Assembly (NCBI GenBank): GCA_964372025.1
Contig: CAYJPF010000001.1
Span: forward strand, 21,696 to 85,695
Length of the DNA: 64,000 nt
Direction of reading: 5' to 3'
From: an uncultured Peptococcaceae bacterium
GTDB lineage: Bacteria > Bacillota > Dehalobacteriia > UBA4068
Shown: positions 41,981 through 57,965 of the stretch, piece after piece
Position numbering within the stretch: the stretch's first letter is position 1
Layout: each line of letters starts with the position of its first letter
Notes under the pieces: generated by a model
The model's database searches: none
What the model was told of the DNA's origin: nothing
What the model saw: only the letters and a program-made list of their open reading frames with translations
Program-made: the position numbers and the translations under genes

Positions 41981-42615
41981 TTTGTTTACCTCCTAAACGT
42001 TCAAATTTGAACGTTTTTATTCTTTTAACTCCTTAAAACGTTGCAATTTCAACGTTTCTAACTTATATTTAATATTATAATTGAAATAAATATAAATTGC
42101 AATACCTTTTTAAATTTTTTTTAGTAAAATTTACTTTTTTTTTATAGCTCTAAAAACACTACTAGAAAACACTACTAGAAAACACATTTTAAAACACTCT
42201 AAAAACATACTCTCATACTAGCATTAAATACATTAAATTCAATGCTTAGAGCTTAAAGCAGAGAGTTTTAAAATGTGATTAAAATTATCTCTGTATTGTA
42301 AGTGTAACAATAGTTTTTACTAGTAATAAAAACACTGTATGCATATATACAGATATACAGAGAAAAATCCAGCAAAGTTGTATACACTATTCTAAATATT
42401 CTGACAATTCAAAATATTCTGAAAATTTCGAAAAATCAGACATCTCAATTTGGTAAAATTTACCAATTCTACCAATATTTCCCATATATAACATAATATC
42501 CCTATATTCCCAATATTTTCCATGCACCACATATTCTACCATATATTCCATATATTGCCAATTGACCAGATCTGGTAAAATTTACCAATTCTCAATAATA
42601 AAAAAAATAAGATTT

Positions 42616-42897
42616 TTACACCTTATTTTTACTAATTACTAAATTATAGTAACTATCTTCAGCAGGAATCCATAATTCCTTGCTATCATTTATGAAGGCT
42701 CTAACGTCCTTCTCTTTTATACTATAGCAACTCATATCGCTATAACTAGCATCATCAGATACTATATTTACAAGCTCTAAAGCCTTTTCAAGTTCTTTAA
42801 AGCCTACTTGATAGCTGTCATCTTCAGCTATCATATTTAGTTTTACATTAAATATATTATCTAATATATTTAATTGTAATTGTAATTTTAAATCCAT
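42616..42897 (-). CDS. hypothetical protein
   Basis: 93-aa ORF whose start overlaps the upstream stop. Confidence 0.35.
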   Translation of the reverse strand: MDLKLQLQLNILDNIFNVKLNMIAEDDSYQVGFKELEKALELVNIVSDDASYSDMSCYSIKEKDVRAFINDSKELWIPAEDSYYNLVISKNKV

Positions 42898-43337
42898 TAT
42901 AACACCTCTTGAGGGTAGTACCCTCCATTATCCCTATTAAAATGATATAGCGTTATTGTTATACCATTTTTTCTAGTAGCATTTAATACTGCTACTAATG
43001 CCACAGTTAACCCTGTGACATACAGGTTTATATGGGCATTCCCATATTTCGACAAGCTTTCTTCAGCTTGCTCTTGCAAACCCTTTGTATCCAAAGGATT
43101 TACATTTTGAGGGAATAAATATTCGCTTATTCCCTCTATTTCATGTCGACTCTCACATAAGCCGACATTTACTTCCTCTACTACTGGAGGAACTGGAGAC
43201 ATATCTCCAATTTCCAACCAATAGTTACAATAATCAGCTAGATGGCAATTCCAACAATTGCCATTTGCAGAAGTCTGTTGACCTCTACAGAAATTATTGT
43301 TATTGTTATTGTTATTGTTATTGTTATTGTTTCTCAT
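42897..43337 (-). CDS. hypothetical protein with N-terminal poly-Asn tract
   Basis: RBS ACGGAGG. (ATTGTT)x7 at 43293-43334 encodes N13. A 5'UTR hairpin abuts the SD. Confidence 0.45.
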   Translation of the reverse strand: MRNNNNNNNNNNNNNFCRGQQTSANGNCWNCHLADYCNYWLEIGDMSPVPPVVEEVNVGLCESRHEIEGISEYLFPQNVNPLDTKGLQEQAEESLSKYGNAHINLYVTGLTVALVAVLNATRKNGITITLYHFNRDNGGYYPQEVL

Positions 43338-43676
43338 TTTTCTACCTCCGTATGTTGGAACATTGCAATTCCAACGTTTTTAATTTTAACTTGTATATAG
43401 AATATCACGATTAAAAACATAAGTCAATAGCTTTTTTAAAATTTTTTAATTTATTTTAAAAATATCTTTTATATCCTCCGCATCCTCCGCATTTTATGTA
43501 AAATTTACTAAAATTTTACATAAAATAAAAACATATCCTTATGGTAAAATTTACCATATCACACCATCCTCCGCATCAAAGATAGCTTTGGTAAATTTTA
43601 CCATAAGGAGTAAAATTTACCAATTAAATAATTTTTGGTAAAATTTACCAATTCTACCAAAAATAAATTTTCTGAA

Positions 43677-43829
43677 AATTCAGAATTGTCAGAATATTTG
43701 AAAAATTCAGAATATTTCAATATTTCAGAATCGTTGCAATATTCAGAATATTCAGAATACACAAAGTTTACAGAAAATTCAGAATTGTCTGATAATTCAC
43801 AATATTCACAATATTCACAATATTCAGTT
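43677..43829. repeat. tandem array of 17 x 9-bp repeats (consensus NATTCAGAA)
   Basis: Perfect 9-bp register across 153 bp, immediately followed by two copies of the palindrome TGTTTCACGTGAAACA (43834, 43871). Confidence 0.8.
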
Positions 43830-43981
43830 ATAATGTTTCACGTGAAACACTCCTATAATATTTTAAAAAATGTTTCACGTGAAACACTGTGTAATGGTAA
43901 AATTTACCATTATAATCCTATATGTCAACATCTACCATATTTACTAAATTTTACCATATTTAACATAAAAAAGAAAAAGAG

Positions 43982-44176
43982 CTATATAGCTCTTAATCTT
44001 TTCATAATAGGTTTATGATAATTTGATTTATACCATAATCCCATTCTTAGAGCCTCTGCAAGCTCTGCATTGCCATAACAATGCCACTCTGTTAAGGCTT
44101 GACTAGCACTTGCTAGCCATAAGAGCTTTTTATTGAAGCTCTTTTTATTTAATTTTATTGTATTTTTTCTTCTCAT
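43982..44176 (-). CDS. hypothetical protein
   Basis: 64-aa ORF with RBS AGGAGGATG, third gene of a small operon. Terminator hairpin AGAGCTATATAGCTCT follows. Confidence 0.4.
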   Translation of the reverse strand: MRRKNTIKLNKKSFNKKLLWLASASQALTEWHCYGNAELAEALRMGLWYKSNYHKPIMKRLRAI

Positions 44177-44188
44177 TTTTTCATCCTC

Positions 44189-44422
44189 CTATTGTACTCT
44201 TATTATCTCATTTAAATTTATTTTTCTACCATGTGATATAAAGTATATATCACCATTGCTTTTATATCTGAGCTCAGCTCTTGCTTTCCTTGATACTGTA
44301 TCTCCTGAAACATATTGATATGTAATATAATTATCATCTATATCAATAACTCCAAGCCCTCCAGTATTGCTTAAATGCATCGTCCCTATATAATTATATT
44401 TTTTATACTTTATTGTTTTCAT
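44189..44422 (-). CDS. hypothetical protein
   Basis: 77-aa ORF with RBS TAGGAGGTA. Confidence 0.45.
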   Translation of the reverse strand: MKTIKYKKYNYIGTMHLSNTGGLGVIDIDDNYITYQYVSGDTVSRKARAELRYKSNGDIYFISHGRKINLNEIIRVQ

Positions 44423-44433
44423 CTTTATACCTC

Positions 44434-44562
44434 CTAATATATAGTAAACATTTTACACGTTTTACTATTCTCATAAAGCTTTATACATAAAGCTTCACAT
44501 ATGAAATTACCTTCTCTTGTCTCTGTGCAATAAGCACAGTCTAAACAACCTATACTATACAT
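44434..44562 (-). CDS. Cys-rich 42-aa peptide (not in the ORF track)
   Basis: MYSIGCLDCAYCTETREGNFICEALCIKLYENSKTCKMFTIY with RBS GGAGAGGT. It is preceded by a TTGCAA-17-TATAAT promoter and a TTGCGAGGGTCGCAA hairpin/operator in the leader. Confidence 0.35.
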   Translation of the reverse strand: MYSIGCLDCAYCTETREGNFICEALCIKLYENSKTCKMFTIY

Positions 44563-44900
44563 TCTTACCTCTCCTATCTGTTGCGACCCTCGCAACCCTT
44601 GAAATACTAACGTTTTATTTAACGTCTTGACTTATTATAGCATATCTAAAATAGCATTGCAAGCTTTTTTTAAAAAATTTTTAAACTTTTTTAAATTTAT
44701 TTTTTATACCACGATTTATATTATATATCAGAATTTTCTGAAAATTCAAAACATTTGCACAACTTCCAATCCATACACTTGGTAAAATTTACCAATCCTC
44801 CGCATCCTCCGCCATAAATGCTTTATGGTAAAATTTACTATTTAAACCATATATTTTAAAATAAATAAATATGGTAAATTTTACCATAAAGCATTTTTTG

Positions 44901-44999
44901 TTTTCAGAAATTTCAGAATTGTCAGAAAATTCAGAATTTACAAAAATTTCAGAATTGTTAGAATTGTCAGAATATTTAAAAAATTCAGAATATTCTTAC
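44901..44999. repeat. tandem array of 11 x 9-bp repeats (NTTTCAGAA family)
   Basis: Same repeat family and register as the 43.7-kb array. It ends in TGTTTCACGTGAAACA at 45004. Confidence 0.75.
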
Positions 45000-45117
45000 T
45001 ATATGTTTCACGTGAAACACCCTTATATTCTCACACTCTCGCATTGCCTACCTATGGTAAAATTTACCATAAAAATTTCATAAAAAAGAGATGGCAATTT
45101 TTACCATCTCTTATATT

Positions 45118-45251
45118 TCTTATATCATTGATTCACATATGCTTCCAATAATTGGTATTCCAAATAATACCATAAATGTTAGAAATGTCGCCATCCCTCC
45201 GTCCATTTCAGATTTCTTATTACTTCTTTTATATCTTATTGGTTTGCTCAT
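45118..45251 (-). CDS. hypothetical small membrane protein (not in the ORF track)
   Basis: About 43-aa ORF with strong RBS AAGGAGGTGG and a TAATG coupling to the upstream gene. One TM helix (FLTFMVLFGIPIIG). Confidence 0.35.
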
Positions 45252-45421
45252 TATTTCCACCTCCTTAAAGCTTCTTCTCTATCTAATTCGCTCATGATGA
45301 GTTCCTCTTCAGTTATCATCATGTTTTTTAAAACTTGTTTTCTCTCTCTGTCTAGCTCTCTGAACCTCTTTTTTAAATCGCTCTCACTCCATTTTTTAGT
45401 TTTTTTAATTTCTTTACTCAT
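45251..45421 (-). CDS. hypothetical small basic coiled-coil protein
   Basis: Start reassigned to MSKEIKKTKK (RBS AGAGAGGTAAA). The 5'UTR carries the hairpin GTTGAGATATTCGAATCTCAAC. Confidence 0.4.
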   Translation of the reverse strand: MSKEIKKTKKWSESDLKKRFRELDRERKQVLKNMMITEEELIMSELDREEALRRWK

Positions 45422-45718
45422 TTTTTTACCTCTCTTTTTTCTGTTGAGATATTCGAATCTCAACGTTTCTTTGTTTTAACCTACCTATATATTATCACAC
45501 CTTTATATATATGTCAACACTTTTTTTAAATTTATTTTTTATTTTTTTAATGTTGTAAAATTCTAAATTTTCTGAAAATTTAGAAAATTCGATCAACTCC
45601 AATCGCTCTACTTGGTAAAATTTACCATAACTTGCATCTCTGATATTTAGGTAAAATTTACCAATACCATTCCAATAAAAAATGGGAATATTTTACAATT
45701 CCCATTTTATACCATATT

Positions 45719-46288
45719 TTACAGATTTACATAATCATATATATTTTTTATTAAATCACTTCCAAATATTCCCATACATTTTTCATGTGTTTTTTTCATA
45801 TCTTGGTAAGCTCCTATTCCTCTCTTATATTGCTTTACATTTTCAGTATATCCAAATTCCTCAATAAACATATCTTCGTTATTATATTCTATAATGTTTG
45901 AGTCTGTCAATATGCACCATATGCAATCAAATAATAGTTTAATTCTATCAAATTTAAGGTCTCTTTTATTGTCTCTTACGTTTATTCCACTACCTGTATT
46001 ATATTTAAATTCATGTCCATTTATAATAAATAAATGTCTATTATGTCCCCATTTTTCGCCATTCTCATCATTATCAAAGTAGCCTATATTAATATATTTA
46101 ATTGTATCTAACTTAGAAAATATCTCATAAAATTTCTTTTCACTATCTATATAATCTTTATAATATTCGTATAAATTTACTATACATTCTCTAGCTTCAT
46201 CTTGAAGCTCTTCGCACCAGTTAGCAAAATCACTTTTTCTGTTCCATTCCCAATTTTTCATAGTGTTCTCATAAGTTTCAATTCTCAT
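45719..46288 (-). CDS. hypothetical protein
   Basis: 189-aa ORF with the cassette promoter TTGACA-17-TATTCT, leader AAGTTAAAGTTAA, a 5'UTR hairpin and RBS AGAGAGGT. Confidence 0.45.
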   Translation of the reverse strand: MRIETYENTMKNWEWNRKSDFANWCEELQDEARECIVNLYEYYKDYIDSEKKFYEIFSKLDTIKYINIGYFDNDENGEKWGHNRHLFIINGHEFKYNTGSGINVRDNKRDLKFDRIKLLFDCIWCILTDSNIIEYNNEDMFIEEFGYTENVKQYKRGIGAYQDMKKTHEKCMGIFGSDLIKNIYDYVNL

Positions 46289-46551
46289 TTTTTACCTCTC
46301 TTCTGTGCAAACTCTGTGTTTGCAACGTTTTAACTTTAACTTGTATATAGAATATCATATCTTGACCCATATGTCAATACTTTTTTTAATGTTGTAAAAT
46401 TCTAAATTTTCTGAAAATTCAGAAAATTCGATCAATTAAAAAATATAAATATGGTAAAATTTACCAATCCTCCGCACCCTCCGCCATATGGTAAAATTTA
46501 CTAAAAAAGGAAATATATATAATTGGTAAATTTTACCATATGGCGGAGGAA

Positions 46552-46803
46552 ATTGTCTGAATTGTCAAACAATTCAGAACTGTCGAAATTTTCAGAATCT
46601 TTTGAATTGTCAGACAATTCAAAATTGTCAGAATATTTCCAATATTCTCAATTATTATAATTGACTGAATTTTCAGACAATTCAGAATATTCCCAATATT
46701 CTTAATTGCCCATATACACCAAATATTCTGAATATTCTTAATTGACCGACTTTTCTGAATTGTCAGAATATTTGCAATATTTTTAATTATTATAATATTC
46801 TTA
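46552..46803. repeat. tandem array of 28 x 9-bp repeats (consensus ATTNTCAGA)
   Basis: 252 bp in perfect 9-bp register, ending in TGTTTCACGTGAAACA at 46809. Confidence 0.8.
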
Positions 46804-46838
46804 CTATATGTTTCACGTGAAACAAAATATTGCAAGTG

Positions 46839-47291
46839 TTATTTAACACTTACAATATTTTCCATTTTTACTGTTATTACACTTAATTCACTGCTATTAG
46901 AAAATTCACTTTTTAAGCACAATATTTCAGCTTCAGCCTTTGTAATCTCAACACCATCTTTATAATATGTTGTCGTCGCTTTACTTTTAGGGCTTGTTGT
47001 CACTCTTAAATATAAGTTTTCTTTATGTTCTATTATATATGGAAAGTGCTTCCACTGTCCCCACGGTAGAGCTTGAACTATTGCTTTTCCATCTGCTCCT
47101 ACTCCGTTTCTTTCTTTAGTGTCTTTCATATTAGCATAATCTACACCAAATCTACAAGATGTCATAATTGTTATTTTCTCAACCTTATTGTCTATTCCTT
47201 TTCTTGTCTTAAGTTGCTTATTCCATTTTACTGTTGTAAAAGCTCCTTTTTTTAAACTCTCTACTTGTTTTTTAACTTCTCCATAAATCAT
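46839..47291 (-). CDS. hypothetical protein
   Basis: Start reassigned to MIYGEVKK (RBS GAGAGGTAACA). The ORF-track N-terminal extension ..NYKLKLRI.. is a translation of the conserved leader. Confidence 0.45.
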   Translation of the reverse strand: MIYGEVKKQVESLKKGAFTTVKWNKQLKTRKGIDNKVEKITIMTSCRFGVDYANMKDTKERNGVGADGKAIVQALPWGQWKHFPYIIEHKENLYLRVTTSPKSKATTTYYKDGVEITKAEAEILCLKSEFSNSSELSVITVKMENIVSVK

Positions 47292-47522
47292 ATTGTTACC
47301 TCTCTTTTTAATTCTTAACTTTAACTTATAATTCATTATAGCACATATAAAAGCATCTGTCAATACTTTTTTTAAAAAATTTTTAAATTTATTTAAAAAA
47401 TATATTATGTAAAATTTACCAAATTTTTACAGTAAAATAAATATGGTAAAATTTACCTTATGTGCATCATTCTTCTCTATGGTAAAATTTACCACAACAA
47501 AAAAAAAAAAAAAAAGAAGAGC

Positions 47523-47747
47523 TTAAAGCTCTTCTAAATCATCAAATCCATTCCATACGTCCTCAAGCACTATTTCATTATATTCATTTATTATGATGTG
47601 TGGTGCTTCATCTCCATAATATTCATGTTCTAATAAAAATACTTTGCCATATTCTTTATAATCCATCTCGTCTACCACATACCACGTCCCCTTGTGTCCC
47701 TCTACTCTGATATTGTCACTCTTTGCAGTAATTTTCATATTGCTCAT
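47523..47747 (-). CDS. hypothetical small acidic protein
   Basis: 74-aa ORF with cassette promoter and leader. A strong terminator (hairpin plus T17) follows. Confidence 0.45.
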   Translation of the reverse strand: MSNMKITAKSDNIRVEGHKGTWYVVDEMDYKEYGKVFLLEHEYYGDEAPHIIINEYNEIVLEDVWNGFDDLEEL

Positions 47748-47791
47748 TTTGTTACCTCTCTTATTTATTATTTAACTTTAACTTATAATTT

Positions 47792-47820
47792 ATTATACCA
47801 TATGTATTTTAATCTGTCAA
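47792..47820 (-). promoter_or_regulatory. representative cassette promoter (TTGACA-17-TATAAT)
   Basis: -35 at 47820-47815 and -10 at 47797-47792 on the minus strand, followed by leader AAGTTAAAGTTAA (47784-47772) and an RBS. The same layout recurs at least 15 times between 43.4 and 59.4 kb. Confidence 0.55.
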
Positions 47821-47974
47821 TAGTTTTTTCAAAATAATTTCAGAAAAATTTCAGAAATAATAATGGTAAAATTTACCTGATGAAAATTTCAGAAGTGCGA
47901 ACAAGCTAGGTAAAATTTACCATAAAAAATTCAGAATAAAAAATGGGAATATTTTACAATTCCCATTTTTTATA

Positions 47975-48241
47975 TTATCTTATTTTTCTATCTAGCACTA
48001 GCACACAATTTTTCTTAAGCTCTGGTGCATACTGACTTTGAGATATATATAATATTGTATTAGGATATTCCAATATTATATTTTTGTCCTCATCTGTCAA
48101 TGGTCTACTTATTTCAAACATTGTTCCATATATTTTCTTTCCATCTCTTTTTATATGTGTTCTGTAAAAATTATTATATGCATTGTTATTGCAGTCTCTT
48201 AATAATTTATAAACTCCATAATCATCTAATTTCTTTCTCAT
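47975..48241 (-). CDS. hypothetical protein
   Basis: Start reassigned to MRKKLDD (RBS GAGAGGTAAA). Confidence 0.4.
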   Translation of the reverse strand: MRKKLDDYGVYKLLRDCNNNAYNNFYRTHIKRDGKKIYGTMFEISRPLTDEDKNIILEYPNTILYISQSQYAPELKKNCVLVLDRKIR

Positions 48242-48314
48242 TTTATTTACCTCTCTTTTATTTAACTTTAACTTATATATAGAGTATATCACATACATTT
48301 TATATTGTCAAGCA

Positions 48315-48914
48315 TTATTTTAATTTAAATTTATTTAATTTGTCTTTAGCTATTTTAAATTCATTCTCTTTTATTTTGACCTCTTCAATTGCAGATACTA
48401 ATTCTTCAACATATTTATCAATACTAGATATGTATTCATAATCTTTATAATTGGCATTTACAAACTTTTTATTTTCAAAGTCGATAAACACATTATCTTC
48501 AATAAAAGCATCTCCATTTTCAAGTTCAATACTTCCCATATATAAACTCCCATAATAAATTGAAAATCCATCATCAGACAAGTTTATTTTAAAGTAATGT
48601 AAGAAAAATTCTATTTCACTTTTCAACATATGTAAATTATATTCGTTAGCACGTTTGCAATAATATTTCTCTATTACCTTTATAATATCATTATTGCAAT
48701 ATTTTAAAATAAAATATACTATATTATTTTTAATAACTAAATTCTTCTTTTTTTGAGATAGAGGCATAGTAGAGTCACATCCTCCATACTCCATATATGT
48801 ATCTTCCAAATATACTAAATTGCTTCTTAAAGTCTCCAAATCTTTTATTTCTTGTCGAGTTCTATCCATAAAATCGTTTATGCTTCTTTCTAAAATGTTA
48901 AATTCACTATTCAT
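48315..48914 (-). CDS. hypothetical protein
   Basis: 199-aa ORF with RBS GAGAGGTAAGA and cassette promoter. Confidence 0.45.
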   Translation of the reverse strand: MNSEFNILERSINDFMDRTRQEIKDLETLRSNLVYLEDTYMEYGGCDSTMPLSQKKKNLVIKNNIVYFILKYCNNDIIKVIEKYYCKRANEYNLHMLKSEIEFFLHYFKINLSDDGFSIYYGSLYMGSIELENGDAFIEDNVFIDFENKKFVNANYKDYEYISSIDKYVEELVSAIEEVKIKENEFKIAKDKLNKFKLK

Positions 48915-49098
48915 ATTCTTACCTCTCTTTTTATTTAGTAATAACTTTTATCTTACTTATATATTACCACACATATATAATAAAGTCAAGCATTATTTTT
49001 AAAATTAAAATGTTTAAATATTCAGACAATTCAAAATATTCAAACAGATCATACACTAGGTAAAATTTACCATATATACATAAAAAGAGAAAAAGAGC

Positions 49099-49347
49099 CT
49101 ATAGCTCTTCTTCGTCCTCTTCTTCGTCCTCACACTTATTATATAATTCCATAATATCAGCTAGTTCAAACCACACAAAGTCGTTTATCTCTGTTTCTGT
49201 GCATGCCTCTTTGCACATATATTCCTCTATTATTTCTTGAGCCTCTTGTTCTCTGTCTTGAAATCTTATTTCTTCGGCTACATCTTGCCCACCACTCCAA
49301 AATTCAAAACTATCAAATTTAAATTCATATTCTTCTCTTACTATCAT
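49099..49347 (-). CDS. hypothetical highly acidic protein (DNA-mimic-like composition)
   Basis: 82 aa ending EDEEEDEEEL, with cassette promoter. Confidence 0.4.
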   Translation of the reverse strand: MIVREEYEFKFDSFEFWSGGQDVAEEIRFQDREQEAQEIIEEYMCKEACTETEINDFVWFELADIMELYNKCEDEEEDEEEL

Positions 49348-49437
49348 TTTATACCTCTCCTTTGGTTATCTAACTTTAACTTATAATTCATTATAACATA
49401 TACATATTACTTTGTCAATAGTTATTTTAAAAATATT

Positions 49438-49650
49438 TTAATAAATTGAAACCCCTTCATAATAATATAATAGTTTATTATTTATACTGAAATTATCATT
49501 TGATTCTTTACTATGCACATATACACTGCCACACATATCAAACCTCTTAACTTTATATCCTAGCATTTTCAATATTGCCATTCCCATTTCTTCAGGTGAA
49601 TATCCACAATTTTTTGCTAATCTCTCTAAATTTTTTGTTGTTATATTCAT
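49438..49650 (-). CDS. hypothetical protein
   Basis: 70-aa ORF with cassette promoter. Confidence 0.4.
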   Translation of the reverse strand: MNITTKNLERLAKNCGYSPEEMGMAILKMLGYKVKRFDMCGSVYVHSKESNDNFSINNKLLYYYEGVSIY

Positions 49651-49874
49651 CTCATACCTCTCTTTTCATTATTTAACTTTAACTTATATATATAATACCA
49701 TACATTTATATATTTGTCAATAGTTATTTTAAAATAAATCAAAGATATTCTCCTTCCACATACTAGGTAAAATTTACCATATCCCATAATAAAAAAAAGA
49801 ACACACATTCGTGTGTCCTATATTTTACTAGAGACAATGAGAGAGGTAATCGCATTGCTCTAGCCTATTTAGCA

Positions 49875-50144
49875 TTATTTTACAAAATTTTTATATACTC
49901 TTGCAAACTCATTAGCTGATAATCTAGCTTCTTTTCTGCCACCATCAATCCAGTTTAAATGTTTGCCTGTAGTAACTCCCCATATATTTTGATGTACATA
50001 TAATTGCCCACCAACTTTAAATGCTACCAATGTTTTGTATGAGAAATAAAATTCTCTTCCTTTTGCATCTGTGAAAACCAATGTGTGGCTTCCATAATTA
50101 TCACTTGAGTAATTTCCATAGTTTCTATAATTTACATTCATCAT
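49875..50144 (-). CDS. hypothetical protein
   Basis: 89-aa ORF with cassette promoter. Confidence 0.4.
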   Translation of the reverse strand: MMNVNYRNYGNYSSDNYGSHTLVFTDAKGREFYFSYKTLVAFKVGGQLYVHQNIWGVTTGKHLNWIDGGRKEARLSANEFARVYKNFVK

Positions 50145-50247
50145 ATCTTTTTCTCCTTTATTTGTTAACCTCTCAACAACTTATAATTCATTATACCACA
50201 TATATTTTACTTTGTCAATAGTTTTTTTAAAATATTTTTAATTTATT

Positions 50248-50562
50248 TTACCATCCTATATATATTTTAGGATATACAATAATTTCCATGTTCTCATCAA
50301 ATTCAGCTCTTTTAATCATCATAACTTCAAATCCTTCATCTGTCAATACATCTATAATTGAATAGTGGCAAGTATCACTGTCTTTTATATGCGAGAATTC
50401 ATATTCTATATATCCTATATTCTCACCATGTATGTTTGCAGTTATTTTATTTATGATATCGCTTATAGTCATATCAATTATAGTCTTACGTTTCATCATA
50501 GAGGGTGAATTAGCCTCTATATCTTTTATTAGGTTATATATATCTCCTTTTGCTTTTGCCAT
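50248..50562 (-). CDS. hypothetical protein
   Basis: 104-aa ORF with cassette promoter. Confidence 0.4.
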   Translation of the reverse strand: MAKAKGDIYNLIKDIEANSPSMMKRKTIIDMTISDIINKITANIHGENIGYIEYEFSHIKDSDTCHYSIIDVLTDEGFEVMMIKRAEFDENMEIIVYPKIYIGW

Positions 50563-50729
50563 CGTTATTACCTCTCTTTCTTAACTTTAACTTACATATA
50601 TAATATCATACATTTATATATTTGTCAATAGTTATTTTAAAATAAATTAAAAATATTTTTCCTCTATCTACTAGGTAAAATTTACCATATATAATATAAA
50701 AAGAGAGAGCATATTGCTCTCCCATATTT

Positions 50730-51293
50730 TTACATATTTCTTTCATTCTCAATGATAGCATCCATTGCTTCTCTATATCCTTTTGACCAATCTTCTGTGT
50801 CAAGTATATCCAGAGAATCTCCATATTTTTTAGTATATAATTTCCTTTGCAACATATAATCCACATATGAATAATGAGCTTCTTGAGTAACCGATTCGAC
50901 GTGTCTCATTATATTTGTTTCTAGTGCATTCAATACTGCAAAAGCTTTTTCTTTATCAATTGTCAAAAATATACTATCTTCTGCCATATATTCGCAATTT
51001 TCTACAATAACATCAAAATAAGATATATCATTTTCGTCTTTTAAATCATACTCTTCCATTGCTTTTTCCTGTATTTCGTGTTTAGTAATAAACATTGTTC
51101 TCATTACTACATCATACAATATTTCAGTCTCAAGTGTTTCTATATTTTCAGAATTACATAATGGGCAAAATTCTTTTTTGCTATTCCTACTTACAAATAC
51201 ATCTTTTAAATATCTCCCACAATCTCTGCATCTTATTACTTCTTTGTCCTCATCATAGAACTCATGTTTTATTAAATCAATATTATTTGTCAT
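50730..51293 (-). CDS. hypothetical zinc-ribbon protein
   Basis: CRDCGRYL...CPLC motifs, with cassette promoter. Confidence 0.45.
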   Translation of the reverse strand: MTNNIDLIKHEFYDEDKEVIRCRDCGRYLKDVFVSRNSKKEFCPLCNSENIETLETEILYDVVMRTMFITKHEIQEKAMEEYDLKDENDISYFDVIVENCEYMAEDSIFLTIDKEKAFAVLNALETNIMRHVESVTQEAHYSYVDYMLQRKLYTKKYGDSLDILDTEDWSKGYREAMDAIIENERNM

Positions 51294-51374
51294 TTTACCT
51301 CTCCTTATTTTAATTGCTTAACTTTAACTTATAATTCATTATAGCATATATATTTTACTTTGTCAATAGATATT

Positions 51375-51974
51375 TTAAAATAATTTGCCATCTTCATAAA
51401 ATTCATATTCGCTACAGTCACACATATCTTGCATTTCTTCTTCATCAATATTATGTAGAAAGTCATATCCATCTTTCTCATATTTTTTCTCTAAATCTTC
51501 CATATAGTCCATTGCACTGTTAAAGAATTTTACCAATACATCTTCATTGATATTTTTTATATCATTATATTCTAATTCATATATCACATTTTTTACCCAT
51601 TCATCACTTTTTTTATGTATAAATTTTACACTATAAGCATAACGAGTGTTGGCAGATAACATAATTGCATCATTATCATCATATTTAGCATAGAATTTAA
51701 TCGCTCTTTTCTCTTTATCTGTCATATCTAATTTATCAACAATATCACATACATCTAATGTGCCATAAATATTAAGTCCATCGCCTTGACAATATCCTAG
51801 CGAATATTGAGTATGCAATTCAGAGTTAGGAAAATCTTCTTTTAAATCACACTTTATATTATCACTAAATATGTCATTTCTTATTTCGCAATCTAAAAAA
51901 TCTCGTTTCACTCTCTCCTTTGCTTCTTCAGATAATTCTTCATACTTGTAAATTTTTATCTCTTCAATTCTCAT
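51375..51974 (-). CDS. hypothetical protein
   Basis: Start reassigned to MRIEEIKIY (RBS GAGAGAGGTATAAA). Confidence 0.45.
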   Translation of the reverse strand: MRIEEIKIYKYEELSEEAKERVKRDFLDCEIRNDIFSDNIKCDLKEDFPNSELHTQYSLGYCQGDGLNIYGTLDVCDIVDKLDMTDKEKRAIKFYAKYDDNDAIMLSANTRYAYSVKFIHKKSDEWVKNVIYELEYNDIKNINEDVLVKFFNSAMDYMEDLEKKYEKDGYDFLHNIDEEEMQDMCDCSEYEFYEDGKLF

Positions 51975-52076
51975 TTTATACCTCTCTCTTTCAACTCTTA
52001 ACTTTAACTTATAATTCATTATAGCATATATTTTTTACTTTGTCAATAGTTATTTTAAAATAAATTAAAAATATTT

Positions 52077-52352
52077 TTAGTGATATGTATATTGCAATTC
52101 ATAATCATTTAATATTTCACTTATTTCTTTATCAGTGAATTCTCTATCAGAGTTTTCTAGTAGTGACCTTGCACAGTCCTCACAGAATTTTCCACTCATA
52201 TCTAAATATTCACAGTCATCTCCATCATAATATATAGAATCTTCAAATAATACACTATCGCATCTATCACACACCTCTATACAATATGGGTCTTTACTTC
52301 CACAGTTTCTGCATGTCTCACAGTCTAAGCAGTCATTTCTTTGCACTAACAT
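52077..52352 (-). CDS. hypothetical Cys-rich protein
   Basis: 91 aa with 10 Cys (CLDCETCRNCG...). Confidence 0.4.
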   Translation of the reverse strand: MLVQRNDCLDCETCRNCGSKDPYCIEVCDRCDSVLFEDSIYYDGDDCEYLDMSGKFCEDCARSLLENSDREFTDKEISEILNDYELQYTYH

Positions 52353-52624
52353 ATTTTTTCTCCTTCCTTATATTCCTTAAGATATTTGATACTCATTCTC
52401 AAGTGATATATTCTATTATCATGTTCTTCTTCAGCAGATAATTCATCTATCCAAGATTGCAGAGCATCTATAGTTTCTTCTATTCCTTCTACATCCATCA
52501 AATATCCACTCATATCACAGTATGGACAGTGATTTTCTCCTATCTCATCATCTCTTCCATCATATTTAACGAGTATTTCACCCTCATCCATTGTGTTTTC
52601 ACACCAGTTACATTTAATTCTCAT
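52346..52624 (-). CDS. hypothetical zinc-ribbon protein
   Basis: CNWCEN...CPYCD, with cassette promoter. Confidence 0.4.
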   Translation of the reverse strand: MRIKCNWCENTMDEGEILVKYDGRDDEIGENHCPYCDMSGYLMDVEGIEETIDALQSWIDELSAEEEHDNRIYHLRMSIKYLKEYKEGEKIC

Positions 52625-53347
52625 ATTATTTATTCCTCTCTTTCAATATAAATAACTTTAACTTACATATATAATATCATAGTTAAAGCTATTTGTCAAT
52701 AGGTATTTTAAAATATTTATTATTGGAAAAATTTGGTAGGATCGGTCATATTGGTAAAATTTACCTTTATAATACAATAGAGTGCAAAAGGTTGCAAAAT
52801 CGCTTTAGCGGTTTTAGCAAACCTAGGAATTGACGTACAAAATGAGTAGAAAATATTTATATTTTCTACATTTTGTAGTCAAGGAGTGGAGCTCAAGAGC
52901 CTTATGGAATATGAATATTTCATAAGGTATAAGGCTTAACAGCCCTATTCTGCCAAATAGAGAAAGTGTAAACACTTTCTTGCTATTTGGTGCGAATATT
53001 CCCCCCTTTGCCAAAACTGCTGAAGCAGTTTCGTCAACCATATTCAACTGGTTTCAATATTTCTACTTAATTTGTATTGAAAATTAGAATTTTATAAATG
53101 CATAAAATTTAAAAACATATGATTATGACAAAGAAATATTTTGATTTAGAAAATTGTTATTGTTGAGAATTCCAAAATACAAAATTCGAAAAATCAAAAA
53201 TAAATGTTGAAATTTCAACGCTTAAACCCCCTCGCTCTAAATATAATGTACTAAAAAATTAGAATTTTTAGCGTAAGCAAAACACGAGGGAGAAGCGTGA
53301 GCAAAAAACGGACAGCGACTGCTCTTGATTGTTGTTTAAATTTGTAT

Positions 53348-54709
53348 TTATTCTTCAATATTTTCATCTAAATCCTCATACATATTTTCATATGATTGAG
53401 ATTCAAGTATAACTTCTTCATTTAACCAACTATGTAGCAAATTCCTCATTCTCTTAGATGGAATATATACATTTATATTATTGTATTCTCTAATAGCACT
53501 TCTAAATATAAATTGCAACATTTCAGATAGAGCGAATAAATCATAATTGATTTTTACTTTATGAAATAAAAAAAATTGTTTTACATAAGGATTAGGAAAT
53601 CTGTTAGCGAAATAAACCACACAAGTCCTATCCTTATACATATTAGTTCCTCTTGTATTTAGAGCGACAAATCCTTTTGTATATCCTTTCCCACTATATA
53701 ACTTTTTATATTCCTTATATACAGTCCATATTACTTTATTAGAATGAGATTTAGAAATTTTTTGAACATAATTCTCTATATTATTTTTAATTAACTTAGT
53801 CACCTTATCATTCTTAGACCAAGTATCAAACCATGTTTTTGAGAGAGCTGTCTCAAATTCTCCTATATCATTCAATTTGCTATTTTCATGAATTGAAATA
53901 AGTGGCTTATATCTTTTTATATCATATTTTTGAGGAACATCTGTTAGGCAATATCTCCCACCTTCTTTTTTTACATACAGATAATTATATTCTACATTAT
54001 GAAAATCAAAATAATATTTCTGAATTTGGGCATCAAACATATATGTCAATATATATACACGTCTAAAGGCTTTAAATATTGAAACTGGAAAATTCCATGC
54101 GATTGTAGAATTATTATTTCCATAAGCATACAGTGATTCTATTTCACACATTTTTTTGTATTTATTATATTCTCCACTATATGATTTATCTGTCCACACT
54201 ATCAATCCATCTTTTTCTATTTTTGCGTGTTTAGAAAATATATTTTGTCTGTCTGATTTACTTATAGCTGTTGTTCCCACTACATCTGCAACTTCATCCA
54301 TAACCAATATATATCGATTTAAAAATGCAAGCTGTACCATTTCTGCATCGAAATATTGGAATAAAGCATGTGTAGTTACAATATTCTTGCCTTGATTTAT
54401 TAGTTCTTTTATATTCTCTGTCTTAGTAGATACTGCATCTGATGGTTCAATAAAATGTTTGTCTTTGCAACTCTCTTTGATTCTTTTGACCTCATCAAGA
54501 TATGGGGTAACATACATATACCTATATACATCATCTGACATTTTGTCCTCATTTATAAAGTTTATCAAAGAACTTGTTTTCCCTTCCCCCATAGGAGCAT
54601 CAACTACATTAACTTTATAATGTTTGTAATTATCACTTTCAACAAACATATCTACTAATTCATCAAATTCTTCATTGGTTATTATTTTACTCATTATAAT
54701 GTCTCCCAT
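53348..54709 (-). CDS. superfamily-2 helicase-like P-loop ATPase
   Basis: Walker A DAPMGEGKTS, Walker B LVMDEVAD (DExx) and a motif VI-like QFIFRSAIRE. Confidence 0.4.
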   Translation of the reverse strand: MGDIIMSKIITNEEFDELVDMFVESDNYKHYKVNVVDAPMGEGKTSSLINFINEDKMSDDVYRYMYVTPYLDEVKRIKESCKDKHFIEPSDAVSTKTENIKELINQGKNIVTTHALFQYFDAEMVQLAFLNRYILVMDEVADVVGTTAISKSDRQNIFSKHAKIEKDGLIVWTDKSYSGEYNKYKKMCEIESLYAYGNNNSTIAWNFPVSIFKAFRRVYILTYMFDAQIQKYYFDFHNVEYNYLYVKKEGGRYCLTDVPQKYDIKRYKPLISIHENSKLNDIGEFETALSKTWFDTWSKNDKVTKLIKNNIENYVQKISKSHSNKVIWTVYKEYKKLYSGKGYTKGFVALNTRGTNMYKDRTCVVYFANRFPNPYVKQFFLFHKVKINYDLFALSEMLQFIFRSAIREYNNINVYIPSKRMRNLLHSWLNEEVILESQSYENMYEDLDENIEE

Positions 54710-55350
54710 ACTTTACATTCTTTGTTAATTTTCTCATAACATTCTTTCCCATATCCTCTTCTAATACTCTCACTATCTGTTAATCTCCTACCACAGTTTC
54801 CACATTTAGCAACATATGTCATTGTGATATTTCTACTTAGCACATTTCTTGATAATTGCGTAAGAGCTGATAATAGTAATCCTATTTCATAATCACTCTT
54901 TTCATAATTTCCTGATTTTCCTTTAGAAAATCCAAAAGAAGAATTGTCATTTACAAATAAACAACCTCCGTATAAAGGGTCGTCAAAAGGCTCTTTTTCA
55001 TCTAACAATGTAACAAAATACATATTCCTAGTTGGCTCAGGTTTGGTTAGGAAATATCTTATTTCTCTTGTCTGTTCCTTATCTTGCTGTATTATAAATT
55101 CAGATTTTGTTGAAAGTATAAACTCTAGCATATCTGCATATGTATCAACATTTACGTTTGGATATGTAGGTTCATCATTCAAAGGTGGGTGCATATCATA
55201 TCTTGGTTTACTTTCAGATAAATTTAAAACTTCATATTGTGGTGAAAGTAAATTTAAATTATGTAGCTCTCCTATATTAGTATCTGCTAGGTCTGAAATC
55301 TCAGCATTTGATTGAGATACCACATCTATTATTTCAATTGTTGTATTCAT
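54694..55350 (-). CDS. hypothetical protein with C-terminal zinc ribbon (partner of the helicase-like gene)
   Basis: 218 aa overlapping the helicase-like gene start by 16 nt. CGNCGRRL...C motifs. Confidence 0.4.
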   Translation of the reverse strand: MNTTIEIIDVVSQSNAEISDLADTNIGELHNLNLLSPQYEVLNLSESKPRYDMHPPLNDEPTYPNVNVDTYADMLEFILSTKSEFIIQQDKEQTREIRYFLTKPEPTRNMYFVTLLDEKEPFDDPLYGGCLFVNDNSSFGFSKGKSGNYEKSDYEIGLLLSALTQLSRNVLSRNITMTYVAKCGNCGRRLTDSESIRRGYGKECYEKINKECKVWETL

Positions 55351-55476
55351 ATTGTTCTCCTTTGTTTTAATTTATTATTTATGTATTCATTATATCATAT
55401 TTTATTGGTGGTGTCAAGCATTTTATTTAGCTTGATCTTGGTAAAATTTACCATATGAATATAAAAAAGAGAGGCA

Positions 55477-55977
55477 TTAAAATGCCTCTTTAATCGCCTC
55501 TATAAGTGGCTCTAAACCTGTGGAATATCTCCATATTCCTGAATTGTCTGAATATTCTGCATTTCCATTATATTCACATTCTTCTATAAAGAACTCTGTG
55601 ATTACATAATGCTTATGATATGGGCAGTACCAATATGTTGACCTTAATTGTGCTACCACCTCTACTGCTAAACTATATGTGGTATATGACCCCATTATTT
55701 CCCCACCATCTGTTTCAGTAGTTATCCCTGTTTTGATAGAGTGTCTCTCCTTGAATGGAATTTCTACAGTAGACTTCTTTATTTCATATGTTTTGCATTT
55801 GAATATATAATTGTCCTCTGCAACTTCTGCTCCATAGCATTCATCTATGTAAGTCTTTAAAAGCTCCATAGCTTGCTCTATATCTTCTGCTTCTACTATT
55901 TGAGAATCCCATTGAGACTCCAATCCATTATTTAATTTAAATTGAATTCTAAATGCGTTTACTTGTTTATGTTTCAT
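55477..55977 (-). CDS. hypothetical protein
   Basis: 166-aa ORF with cassette promoter. A terminator hairpin AGAGGCATTTTAATGCCTCT plus a T-run follows. Confidence 0.45.
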   Translation of the reverse strand: MKHKQVNAFRIQFKLNNGLESQWDSQIVEAEDIEQAMELLKTYIDECYGAEVAEDNYIFKCKTYEIKKSTVEIPFKERHSIKTGITTETDGGEIMGSYTTYSLAVEVVAQLRSTYWYCPYHKHYVITEFFIEECEYNGNAEYSDNSGIWRYSTGLEPLIEAIKEAF

Positions 55978-56073
55978 ATTACACCTCTCTCTTTCACTTA
56001 TTTAACTTTAACTTATAATTTATTATAGCACAGGTTGAATAGATTGTCAATAGTTTTTTAGAAATTTTTTATT

Positions 56074-56475
56074 TTAATTCAAATATTCATTCAACATATT
56101 CAATATTTCTGTCTCATATTGCATAGTTGGAATTACAATCTCTTCCATTGTTACAGTTAGTAAACTCCCATATTCAGCTCCAACCAGTGCTTGTTCATAT
56201 GGTGTAGAGATAGGCATTGATGCTATTTCATATATTTTGTTTTCACCATAGTCCATATAGTCAAGAGTTGAAGTAAGATTGTTGTTCACTTCATCACGTA
56301 TAGTGTTCAATAGTTCATCAGCCTCAATTCTTAGGTCTTTCTGCACTTGGACTTCTCTCTGTAGATTTCCTATGGTGATATCTTTCCCCATAGGGTTTGT
56401 AATAGCGATTGTTATTATTGCTGATACCATTACTGATACTAATATAATTGCGATTGTTTTAATTTGTTTTTTCAT
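56074..56475 (-). CDS. hypothetical membrane-anchored protein
   Basis: N-terminal TM helix IAIILVSVMVSAIITIAIT. Confidence 0.4.
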   Translation of the reverse strand: MKKQIKTIAIILVSVMVSAIITIAITNPMGKDITIGNLQREVQVQKDLRIEADELLNTIRDEVNNNLTSTLDYMDYGENKIYEIASMPISTPYEQALVGAEYGSLLTVTMEEIVIPTMQYETEILNMLNEYLN

Positions 56476-56521
56476 GTTTATTCCTCCTTATTTGTTGTTT
56501 AGTTTTAACTTATAATTTAAT

Positions 56522-56749
56522 TTAAAATAAAGGTTCATCAGGGAACATATATGTTCCATTGCTTTTAAATGATTGATTATGGAAATCTATTCTTTTTGCC
56601 ATTTCTTTAATTGTTTTAACTGGCTCAATAGTGATAGGATTTTTCATTTGTTTTATTTTAGATAATAAATTATCATTATCACTACATCTCAATCCATTTG
56701 CAAAATATGTTCCATTATCCTCATGTACTACCACATAGTTAAATTTCAT
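56522..56749 (-). CDS. hypothetical protein
   Basis: Start reassigned to MKFNYVVVHED (RBS AGGAGGAATAAAT). Confidence 0.4.
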   Translation of the reverse strand: MKFNYVVVHEDNGTYFANGLRCSDNDNLLSKIKQMKNPITIEPVKTIKEMAKRIDFHNQSFKSNGTYMFPDEPLF

Positions 56750-56953
56750 ATTTATTCCTCCTTGTTTGCTGTTTAACTTTAACTTATAATTTATTATAGC
56801 ACAGGTCAGAATATATGTCAAGCATTTATTTTATAAATTTATAATTTATTTTTCAAATATCTATATGGTAAAATTTACTAAGATCTGTAATGAAAAAGAC
56901 ACCCATTACAGGTGTCTCTCTCGAAAGGAATAATAACAACTTATGTAAACAGA

Positions 56954-57877: not shown

Positions 57878-57965
57878 ATTTCTACCTCTCCCTTTCAGTT
57901 ACTTTACTTTAACTTATAATTTATTATAGCATAGATTTTCATGATTGTCAAGCATTTATTTTATT

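Follow-up and report, generated by a model that had tools for sequence, protein, structure and literature searches.

Three paralogous intergenic modules in the 64-kb window, the whole stretch of DNA that was analysed, may well be docking platforms for two host chromosomal DNA-binding proteins, ParB and CodY, as judged from the identity of their motifs. The locus lies in the early region, transcribed leftward, of an SPbeta-like phage of about 140 kb from a low-GC Firmicute, and its layout suggests a link between the handling of the phage genome and both the segregation machinery and the feeding state of the host. Each module contains a 16-bp palindrome that is letter for letter the consensus chromosomal parS, a predicted ParB/Spo0J site, and a 9-bp array that runs up to it. 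The arrays are continuous lattices of overlapping predicted CodY operators and appear to be the longest CodY lattices so far seen (Table 1).

The palindrome, TGTTTCACGTGAAACA, fits the chromosomal-type parS pattern TGTTNCACGTGAAACA and is present in exactly four copies. With up to two mismatches allowed, 0.04 occurrences would be expected, and none of 100 shuffled sequences reached four. The same sequence is given as chromosomal parS in the literature (PMC7022226, and likewise in other ParB papers), and IMG/VR phage contigs that differ widely in GC content, several of them phi29-like, carry it in multiple copies. All four parS sites lie within 3 kb.

The 9-mer arrays (43677-43829, 44901-44999, and 46552-46803) consist of 17, 11, and 28 units with zero indels, and Tandem Repeats Finder reported a period of 9 together with higher orders of 18, 36, and 54 bp. 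WWTTCAGAA is the unit consensus of arrays 1 and 2, and array 3 is more degenerate, with the G retained in 13 of its 28 units. Units have diverged while the phase stayed intact over 153-252 bp, and particular columns were kept, the best conserved being the T before the C (49/56), the C itself (45/56), and the A after the G (54/56). These near-invariant T and A positions correspond to T15 and T15', which are read directly by CodY and are almost invariant in its operators (PMC10415144). CodY operators typically comprise two 15-mers that overlap by 6 nt and are thus shifted by 9 nt; operators with three overlapping sites also exist, CodY binds cooperatively, and a site with five mismatches remains functional (PMC10415144). 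The lattices reproduce this arrangement, with 57 positions at exact 9-nt spacing.

Four sites match the 15-nt pseudo-palindromic CodY consensus AATTTTCWGAAAATT at 15 of 15 positions, and 22 do so with at most two mismatches (3.3 expected). Across the pooled lattices, 43 of the 57 15-mers have at most five mismatches (background 1.2%) and 21 have at most three (background 0.036%), with almost none at five or fewer in the other eight registers. The in-register mean in lattice 1 is 3.9 mismatches, compared to 8.4-12.7 in the remaining registers, and 14 of its 18 15-mers stay within five. Lattice 2 contains the units TTTTCAGAA and ATTTCAGAA, which equal the unit of the crystallised optimal overlapping CodY site, AATTTTCAGAATTTTCAGAAAATT (unit TTTTCAGAA; PMC10415144). 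Even in the degenerate lattice 3, 18 of 28 15-mers have at most five and 7 of 28 at most three mismatches (other registers, 0/27). The terminal sites next to parS are weak, with 5-6 mismatches.

Table 1. Features of the modules and their surroundings (positions in the window).
Feature	Position	Strand	Description
Small CodY-type array	42386..42440	.	5-6 units, inverted orientation, without parS
GGTAAAWTTTACC box span	42452..58498	.	28 copies (0.19 expected)
Module-1 promoter	43399..43427	-	TTGACT-17-TGaTATTCT, read from sequence; drives 43337..42616
Inverted repeat, module 1	43536..43609	.	21-bp arms; z = -8.1
Predicted CodY lattice 1	43666..43833	.	18 in-register 15-mers, 9-bp offset; opens with perfect box 43666-43680
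parS copy 1a	43834..43849	.	Exact TGTTTCACGTGAAACA, perfect consensus ParB/Spo0J site
parS copy 1b	43871..43886	.	Exact match; starts 37 bp after 1a
Module-2 promoter	44634..44662	-	TTGCAA-17-TGcTATAAT; drives 44556..43982
Perfect single CodY box	44732..44746	.	15/15; 70 bp upstream of module-2 -35
ATCCTCCGC tandem pair	44795..44812	+	Further copies 43473-43490 and 46467-46484; exact in modules
Inverted repeat, module 2	44816..44896	.	21-23-bp arms; z = -8.4
Predicted CodY lattice 2	44899..45003	.	11 in-register 15-mers; at most 5 mismatches in 11/11, mean 3.45
parS copy 2	45004..45019	.	Exact match
Perfect CodY box and one weak overlapping site	45566..45589	.	Upstream of short-module promoter
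Module-4 promoter	46349..46377	-	TTGACA-17-TGaTATTCT; drives 46288..45719
Perfect CodY box and overlapping 2-mismatch site	46405..46428	.	28 bp upstream of module-4 -35
Long perfect inverted repeat, module 4	46478..46549	.	24-bp arms, 24-nt spacer, two GGTAAAWTTTACC boxes
Predicted CodY lattice 3	46551..46808	.	28 in-register 15-mers, more degenerate
parS copy 3	46809..46824	.	Exact match

The original prediction of three in-phase, gap-free arrays, each with a perfect 16-bp palindrome at its end, was confirmed, with some corrections of detail. Array 3 is real, but its register had been placed one base off, and array 1 is followed by two palindromes instead of one, although the total of four was correct. 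A conserved TTCTTACTATATG had been claimed before every palindrome; it precedes only two of the four (45004 and 46809), and the others follow TTATAA and AAAAAA. The open reading frames across the arrays, called spurious in that prediction, lack ribosome-binding sites (genuine neighbouring genes have GGAGGT or AGAGGTAA 7-9 nt 5' of the ATG) and are located on different strands. That the arrays are protein-binding and stand beside a centromere-type palindrome is upheld by motif identity, and the "centromere-like" and "protein-titrating decoy" options both remain live. In contrast, the binding protein can no longer be called unknown, because the palindrome matches the parS consensus and the 9-mers are predicted overlapping CodY operators.

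Lattice and parS are joined with the same geometry throughout: the lattice ends 1 bp before the palindrome in all three modules (43833|43834, 45003|45004, and 46808|46809), and the junction phase is 6 mod 9 in each, over two different junction sequences. As modules 1, 2, and 4 are paralogous, neither the four perfect CodY boxes nor the common junction should be counted as independent, and a search for a second example of a lattice abutting parS found none. The arrays are part of a larger module that is repeated three times and also contains GGTAAAWTTTACC boxes, ATCCTCCGC pairs (11 matches vs. 2.4 expected), the perfect 15-bp palindrome AATTTTCTGAAAATT, a long inverted repeat, and a sigma-A promoter, in an order that recurs across the copies. 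The inverted repeat of module 4 lies between lattice 3 and the promoter-proximal elements and has a DNA fold of -28.5 kcal/mol (z = -9.0); compared to its counterpart in module 2, the arm extensions differ in sequence while complementarity is retained. The GGTAAAWTTTACC boxes are promoter-associated, with 16 of the 28 located in the modules at 42.4-46.6 kb, and several lie ~45 bp upstream of a -35 element, directly after the preceding terminator. The arrays precede the promoters at a distance of 200-450 bp. A short module with a CodY box (45566..45589) contains neither an array nor parS.

The assignment of the phage is based on a YonO-type RNA polymerase, a YonV helicase, YopX, a yonJ exonuclease-like gene, and an SPbeta-like gene order, and identities of just 26-41% make it a distant relative. 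Among related elements, the Clostridioides record pCD1602_4 bears a plasmid-like name and another contig encodes an actin-like segregation protein. No parS sites, lattices, or boxes were found in MT835481.1, pCD1602_4, the central 50 kb of SPbeta, or TR-TP1, nor in contigs encoding a YonV with 50-56% identity. Pfam scans and tblastn detected no ParB, ParA, CodY, or Rep among 50 scanned ORFs of the window, bearing out the earlier statement that no initiator or ParA is nearby, and the window also contains no MrpR homologue. The phage could encode its own ParB or CodY-like protein in the 76 kb outside the window.

If the modules are docking platforms, a ParB/Spo0J dimer would nucleate at the canonical 16-bp parS, and CodY dimers charged with GTP and branched-chain amino acids would polymerise cooperatively along the array, with a dimer every 9 bp and about 50 in each genome, right to the parS edge. 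In a well-fed cell, the CodY filament would flank parS on the side of the next operon as a barrier, which would limit ParB loading or one-sided sliding and would keep transcription of the upstream early operon from reading through. Once the levels of GTP and branched-chain amino acids drop, the lattice would empty and host ParB would reach parS freely. Carriage of the phage genome would be coupled to host nutrition by attachment to the host segregation apparatus, comparable to the spore entrapment of phi29, and expression of the flanking small genes would likewise follow the nutritional state of the host. We infer from the motifs that CodY and ParB bind here and that the lattice gates or blocks ParB; the host is assumed to have both proteins because relatives of the phage show Firmicute affinities. 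As CodY binds DNA in rich conditions, one can only guess in which direction it would regulate, if at all. Other conceivable roles of the locus are to gate ParB loading by nutrients, to insulate the operons next to it, or to act as a CodY sponge. A nutrient-gated phage centromere, in which the CodY filament controls loading or one-sided spreading of host ParB and the phage genome engages the host segregation/SMC machinery only when GTP and branched-chain amino acids fall, is put forward tentatively and is rather improbable; as a broader part of it, large Firmicute phages of several families would commonly use dense clusters of CodY sites, so far undescribed in this role, to read or manipulate host nutrition.

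By analogy, the closest precedent is phi29, which has parS sites of the host type in five places and is believed to rely on host Spo0J to become trapped in the spore, and which also carries boxes for Spo0A, a suppressor of its lytic cycle (Meijer, Castilla-Llorente, and Salas; PMC2731898). Like phi29-family phages, the phage described here has several host Spo0J/ParB sites together with predicted sites for a host nutritional or developmental regulator, and neither protein appears to be phage-encoded (none was found in the 64-kb window). Unlike phi29, a 19-kb podovirus with a few boxes at promoters, it is a roughly 140-kb SPbeta-like virus with its parS sites clustered in 3 kb and fused in phase to contiguous lattices of 11-28 units, and the predicted second factor is CodY, active in rich conditions, whereas Spo0A is active in starvation. 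Host-type parS is thus shared with phi29-type spore entrapment, but Spo0A boxes at early promoters are not: TGTCGAA is not enriched (4 in 64 kb vs. 3.3 expected), and none of the copies lies at a promoter.

The lattices share the consensus, the 6-nt overlap, and the contact bases with chromosomal CodY operators (B. subtilis hutP and ureA; S. aureus and E. faecalis structures), as well as the mixture of strong and weak sites that depends on cooperativity (PMC10415144). However, the known chromosomal operators combine two overlapping sites, or three at the most, in or close to a promoter, while 11, 18, and 28 consecutive positions are found here, on a phage and hundreds of bp away from the promoter. 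As on chromosomes, where ParB-CTP forms sliding clamps, the 16-bp palindrome would be the loading site for a ParB-family clamp. In chromosomal ParB-CTP and RK2 KorB-KorA systems, the sliding clamp is restrained or captured by proteins bound to the adjacent DNA; unlike there, the window yielded no gene for a cognate ParB or ParA, and a putative metabolic-regulator filament would take the place of the neighbour. SPbeta itself has a short repeat, SPBRE, in many early-promoter regions, which is recognised by MrpR (PMC10516654). Its likely analogue is the set of 28 GGTAAAWTTTACC boxes framing the modules and not the arrays or parS, although GGTAAAWTTTACC is absent from SPbeta and MrpR from the window. 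The suggested analogy to omega of pSM19035, a ribbon-helix-helix (RHH) protein that binds phased short repeats cooperatively as operator and centromere at once, does not hold beyond the phasing: its heptads are 7 bp long with another sequence and no CACGTG palindrome, and the plasmid encodes both omega and the delta ParA. An element-encoded centromere with its own ParA and binding-protein genes was likewise not recovered, as the unit is 9 bp and no ParA, ParB, or RHH matches were obtained.

If CodY and ParB do bind, the modules would represent a second mechanistic class of pure DNA mimicry after the Spo0A/Spo0J sites of phi29, in which host operator and centromere sequences are copied without a phage gene product. 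This would be the first such case with CodY, the main nutrient sensor of Firmicutes, and would offer a testable route by which large phages sense the feeding state of the host. The locus would also provide a natural substrate for cooperative CodY filaments, so far known up to three dimers, and perhaps a case in which a ParB clamp is gated by another protein on the DNA.

Several other explanations have to be weighed against docking. The modules might be a sponge, with ~56 CodY and four parS sites per replicating copy titrating host CodY and ParB off the chromosome, derepressing the CodY regulon (amino-acid supply, and sporulation in spore-formers) and disturbing ParB/SMC-dependent chromosome organisation; parS adjacency would then be a coincidence or the mark of a general "decoy island". 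We consider this unlikely, although sites cannot be packed more tightly than one dimer per 9 bp, cooperativity on overlapping sites gives high affinity even for weak sites, the arrays lie beyond ordinary operator range of the promoters, and clusters of CodY boxes are also seen in the early regions of virulent phages, which need neither lysogeny nor partition. A single infecting genome supplies only about 50 sites, and titration explains neither the fixed-phase lattice end at parS in all three modules nor why hypertrophied arrays occur only beside parS, with 1-5 units at other promoters. Quite doubtful, too, is a centromere or operator system of the phage's own, with a ParB-type protein on the palindromes and another phage protein on the 9-mers, both encoded in the remaining 76 kb and serving partition of an extrachromosomal prophage or early-gene shut-off; consensus likeness would then reflect shared ancestry of DNA-binding domains. 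Such a system would be in line with the plasmid-like name and the actin-like segregation gene among SPbeta-like relatives and with the repeated operator of the master repressor MrpR in SPbeta. In addition, GGTAAAWTTTACC, the second palindrome of the modules, is found four times immediately downstream of a parA/parB-like operon in Arsenicibacter, indicating that mobile-element centromere motifs are present in the modules. The window encodes no ParA, ParB, MrpR, or CodY homologue, however, and both motifs fit the host-protein consensus perfectly, not approximately. Furthermore, the CodY-type motif is common to unrelated phage families that infect different genera, which is hard to reconcile with a lineage-specific phage protein and argues for a host factor.

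There is only a slim chance that the modules are replication origins or structure-based cis elements, where repeats, AT-rich tracts, and the inverted repeat assemble an initiator and the CodY and parS likeness is secondary. Repeats and AT-rich tracts are closely packed in the modules, and each large module has a 21-24-bp perfect inverted repeat whose differing arm extensions stay complementary (z = -8 to -9). Still, the structure is present three times within 3.2 kb, GC skew merely tracks the direction of transcription, and the 9-mers are already accounted for by a known consensus. The iteron-type origin of the original prediction fares no better: no Rep family was recognised among the neighbouring ORFs scanned, and DnaA boxes are depleted (2 vs. 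5.7 expected); many of the ORFs are orphans, however, and may include an initiator. Non-functional slippage expansion of a short repeat, or coding of a repetitive peptide, is hardly credible despite the varying unit number (17, 11, and 28) and the stop-free ORFs that traverse the arrays. The units are diverged, have specific conserved columns, and show no indel over 153-252 bp, the ORFs have no ribosome-binding site and differ in strand, a small array copy is inverted, and the freedom from plus-strand stops follows from the composition of the 9-bp unit alone.

CodY-type motifs also form clusters in unrelated phages of other Firmicute genera, in early or terminal-repeat regions, with 20 sites in Bacillus phage P59 (0.12 expected) and 8 in Sextaecvirus F1 (0.42 expected). 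Their presence in both Bacillus Herelleviridae and staphylococcal Sextaecvirus phages, again in early regions, suggests that the phenomenon is widespread and overlooked, and a full-text literature search found no paper that connects CodY sites with either group. The variant AATTGTCAGAATATT, which the phage described here shares with P59 and F1, could indicate a different conserved protein whose site resembles that of CodY. Among the 26 phage records matching array 2, 24 are named as Bacillus, Staphylococcus, or Streptococcus elements, and the 25th, labelled Arcanobacterium, has matches identical to those of three of the Staphylococcus records.

The three 9-bp arrays divide into nine-mers without any insertion or deletion, as the original prediction had described, and period 9 was also reported by Tandem Repeats Finder, with higher orders of 18, 36, and 54 bp. 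For array 3 the predicted number of units was correct, but the register had been set one base out; the units of arrays 1 and 2 are conserved far better than those of this array, and array 2 opens with TTTTCAGAA ATTTCAGAA TTGTCAGAA AATTCAGAA. Open reading frames spanning the arrays had been regarded as spurious, and indeed they lack a ribosome-binding site and lie on different strands, while the genuine neighboring genes carry GGAGGT or AGAGGTAA 7-9 nt ahead of the ATG. A small copy of the array also occurs in inverted orientation. Taken together, these observations show that the arrays function as DNA rather than as coding sequence.

The 15-nt CodY consensus AATTTTCWGAAAATT is matched perfectly in each module by a copy of AATTTTCTGAAAATT. 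With up to two mismatches, the window has 22 matches to this consensus (3.3 expected), all but three of which fall within 42.4-46.8 kb. The optimal CodY site used for crystallization, AATTTTCAGAATTTTCAGAAAATT, consists of two copies of the unit TTTTCAGAA (PMC10415144). We scored every 15-mer by its mismatches to the consensus and compared the lattice register with the other eight registers and the window background. Mean mismatches per array and register were 3.5-4.6 in the 9-nt lattice vs. 7.4-12.7 in the other registers; 43 of the 57 lattice 15-mers had at most five mismatches (window background 1.2%) and 21 had at most three (0.036%). CodY sites with five mismatches are still functional, binding is cooperative via cross-dimer contacts, three overlapping sites are known in ureA, and all CodY proteins reportedly share the same mode of recognition (PMC10415144). 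Among the best-conserved unit columns, the A after G (54/56) and the T before C (49/56) coincide with the T15' and T15 positions, respectively, which are directly contacted and almost invariant in CodY-DNA complexes (PMC10415144); the C itself is conserved in 45/56 units. These similarities indicate that the arrays are probably lattices of CodY operators. ArgR/AhrC ARG boxes, TnrA/GlnR boxes, and LytTR direct repeats, compared by eye as consensus sequences, all fitted the 9-mers more poorly than the 15/15 CodY match and were rejected. In the CodY operators known so far, no more than three sites overlap (PMC10415144), whereas the lattices of this phage comprise 11 to 28 units.

The palindrome TGTTTCACGTGAAACA is present in the four predicted copies, against 0.04 expected even with two mismatches allowed. 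Letter by letter, it is identical to the parS consensus of chromosomes, to which ParB/Spo0J binds (PMC7022226), and it very probably represents this site. The conserved TTCTTACTATATG described ahead of it is found at two of the four copies and is missing from the other two. IMG/VR includes phage contigs, varying widely in G+C content, that have several copies of the same 16-mer; several of these contigs are phi29-like podoviruses, in agreement with the five host parS sites published for the phi29 genome (PMC2731898). Bacillus phage vB_BcoS-136 (161 kb) has four perfect consensus parS within 1 kb of intergenic DNA, and no ParB gene is annotated near this cluster. Furthermore, low-GC metagenome contigs contain 6-10 tandem units of ~260 bp, most with a perfect parS, and a perfect Noc-type site, TATTTCCCGGGAAATA, 11 bp from it. 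One of these contigs (L184) looks chromosomal, as it encodes gyrA, dnaX, recR, holB, pth, and mfd, and its array would then combine parS and Noc sites at a density that is unusually high for a chromosome. In the 64-kb window, no Noc site is present.

Read on the minus (coding) strand, each large module runs from the terminator of the upstream operon through one GGTAAAWTTTACC box, parS (two in module 1), the putative CodY lattice, a perfect inverted repeat on two boxes, and a GCGGAGGAT repeat pair to another GGTAAAWTTTACC box, a perfect CodY box, an A/T-rich tract, and a slightly sub-consensus sigma-A promoter followed by small genes. Module 1 is an exception in that its perfect CodY box is the promoter-side end of the lattice itself. 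As predicted, each array abuts a palindrome: in all three modules the lattice ends one base before parS, with a junction phase of 6 mod 9 and two different junction sequences, although the modules are paralogs and their shared features are thus not independent. Long lattices are found only where parS abuts, and other early promoters have one to five CodY-like units. The arm extensions of the inverted repeats past the box differ among modules and are complementary within each, a pattern suggesting that a hairpin, a cruciform, or a bridged dimer-of-dimers site is under selection. The G+C-rich 9-mer ATCCTCCGC, found as tandem pairs whose position is the same in every large module, matches no binding site known to us. 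Several copies of the GGTAAAWTTTACC palindrome lie ~45 bp upstream of the -35 element of early promoters, right after the preceding terminator. Elsewhere, four copies immediately follow a parA/parB-like operon in Arsenicibacter; a 240-kb phage contig has seven or more. GGTAAAWTTTACC may be a centromere motif of the plasmid type, or it may correspond in this phage to the SPBRE/MrpR operator known from SPbeta.

Coordinates of repeats, modules, and related features in the window and in comparison sequences from outside it (L-numbers)
Feature	Sequence	Coordinates	Details
9-bp arrays 1, 2, and 3	window	43677-43829, 44901-44999, 46552-46803	17, 11, and 28 units
Small array copy	window	42386-42440	inverted orientation
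Palindrome TGTTTCACGTGAAACA	window	43834, 43871, 45004, 46809	
Lattice/palindrome junctions	window	43833/43834, 45003/45004, 46808/46809	
Fourth, short module	window	45464-45715	boxes, CodY box, promoter; no lattice, no parS
Perfect inverted repeats	window	46478-46549, 44816-44896, 43536-43609	21-24-bp arms, 24-39-nt spacer
ATCCTCCGC tandem pairs	window	43473-43490, 44795-44812, 46467-46484	one pair per large module
Further ATCCTCCGC copies	window	43566-43574; 46543-46551	second copy inverted
Box palindrome GGTAAAWTTTACC	window	42452-58498	28 copies vs. 0.19 expected
GGTAAAWTTTACC outside the window	L148; L146; L142	1136-1294; 5733-5938; 3001-3310	
13-bp tandem repeat AAAACACTACTAG and three 38-bp repeats	window	42153-42211 and 42466-42572	13-bp repeat in 4.8 copies
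Extended -10 sigma-A promoters	window	47335-59411	minus strand, ~19
Tandem repeats, complex and A/T-rich	window	29925-30114	periods 11, 18, 22, 32
215-nt stretch	window	23520-23734	81% identical to Staphylococcus phage phiIPLA-RODI 'tail tube' region
CodY-box clusters (P59, other Bastillevirinae, Sextaecvirus)	L166; L122; L121; L165; L167	73-498, 2279-2556; 2866-3172; 3018-3106; 1501-2363; 1529-2320	
vB_BcoS-136 parS	L123	2169, 3003, 3039, 3159	
parS plus Noc-type unit arrays	L184; L180; L168	1027-3256; 10591-11827; 23-1273	

In line with the original prediction, which saw neither an initiator nor ParA nearby, Pfam searches found no homologs of ParA, ParB, CodY, Rep, or MrpR among 50 window ORFs, and tblastn of the window with a ParA/ParB pair and with SPbeta regulators yielded no homolog. 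A phage-encoded binder may be located in the 76 kb outside the window. CodY-type clusters are also present in phages from unrelated families, associated with other genera of Firmicutes. In P59, a Bacillus (Cytobacillus) phage of the Herelleviridae, the terminal repeat has 20 such sites with up to two mismatches within 5 kb (0.12 expected); they form two clusters, placed between terminator and early promoter. Sextaecvirus phages of Mammaliicoccus have an eight-site cluster (0.42 expected) in their divergent early region. The variant AATTGTCAGAATATT is common to the window and the phage CodY-box clusters. Of the 26 phage records matched by array 2, 24 have names that assign them to Bacillus, Staphylococcus, or Streptococcus, and a 25th, labeled Arcanobacterium, has matches identical to those of three Staphylococcus records. 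As the motif is common to phage lineages sharing no regulators, it would most simply be read by a conserved host protein. Other Bastillevirinae also have clusters of CodY-consensus boxes in long non-coding stretches.

When GTP and branched-chain amino acids are abundant, CodY is in its DNA-binding state. In our preferred reading, a cooperative CodY filament would fill the lattice in rich conditions and, at the edge of parS, act as a barrier to ParB loading or leftward sliding, as well as to read-through from the upstream operon. Upon starvation, the filament would dissolve, freeing access for ParB and altering the expression of the flanking small genes. We infer this role of the modules from sequence features, and the fixed junction, together with the restriction of long lattices to parS, argues for a coupling between lattice and parS. 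Segregation of the genome may matter in this SPbeta-like lineage, as its members include a record with a plasmid-like name and a contig that encodes an actin-like segregation protein. The main rival, a sponge titrating CodY (and ParB) as the phage genome replicates, would account for the maximal site density and for the occurrence of such sites in virulent phages, but it leaves the lattice/parS junction unexplained and appears rather improbable to us. The iteron-type or lytic origin originally considered is also unlikely, given the presence of three copies, the lack of a recognized initiator gene, and only 2 DnaA boxes in the window vs. 5.7 expected; in addition, the GC skew tracks the direction of transcription.

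Host parS on a phage genome is already known from phi29, the closest precedent, where the sites are thought to let Spo0J bring the genome into the forespore, and where Spo0A boxes repress lytic development in starving hosts (PMC2731898). In contrast to phi29, CodY would here replace Spo0A as the state-reporting factor, and Spo0A boxes are not enriched in the 64-kb window. Full-text searches combining CodY with phage, prophage, Herelleviridae, or terminal repeat retrieved no description of clustered CodY sites in phage genomes. The locus may thus represent a new variant, with a testable prediction, of the exploitation of host DNA-binding proteins by phages through site mimicry.

No second example of this arrangement emerged from the searches. 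Protein-seeded IMG/VR scans with two neighboring ORFs and DNA comparison with the phage collection gave no close relative, the phage was not found in the plasmid collection, and exact look-ups of three window proteins had no match. Module-specific DNA patterns matched no viral or metagenome contig, and no second lattice-plus-parS junction was present in viral contigs; 25 metagenome matches to this junction were dismissed as chance adjacency or chromosomal parS. Likewise, parS, lattices, and boxes are absent from the distant relatives MT835481.1, Clostridioides pCD1602_4, the central 50 kb of SPbeta, Thomasclavelia TR-TP1, and contigs with YonV at 50-56% identity.

Judging from its gene content, the phage is a distant SPbeta-like virus: RNA polymerase (YonO-type), exonuclease (yonJ-like), portal, and terminase follow the SPbeta order, and YopX and a YonV-type helicase (41% identity to SPbeta YonV) are also encoded. 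Its nearest relatives in the phage collection by single proteins, all of them distant (35-43% identity), are a Thomasclavelia ramosa phage, Enterocloster phages, and human-gut contigs. Membership in the Herelleviridae, considered because of a 215-nt match to a staphylococcal phage, was dropped after comparisons of the portal, RNA polymerase, and helicase; this stretch adjoins an endonuclease-family ORF (22498-23454) and may be left over from a mobile intron or a homing endonuclease. The window has a G+C content of 29%, and Rfam detected no RNA family anywhere in it. Genes are oriented leftward from 64 kb to 41.3 kb and converge there with a cluster oriented rightward (30.3-41.2 kb). In the leftward block, promoters that match TTGACA-17-TGnTATAAT perfectly or nearly so each precede one to three short orphan genes, which end in a terminator; this layout is of the early, host-takeover type. 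Domains recognized among the genes of this block are DUF932, SprT-like, DUF6011, and LPD18, which we take to be typical of early or anti-defense regions.

The terminase large-subunit ORF (15612-18557) is unusually long (981 aa), with an N-terminal part that has additional matches to DnaC-like helicase-loader and primase families. Complex A/T-rich tandem repeats lie in the intergenic region from which the YonO-type RNA polymerase cluster and the rightward cluster diverge. The 13-bp and 38-bp repeats are located upstream of the gene at 41372-41980, and part of the 38-bp unit recurs within array 3 (46687-46716). Finally, the ORF at 42897-43337 starts with a run of 13 asparagines.
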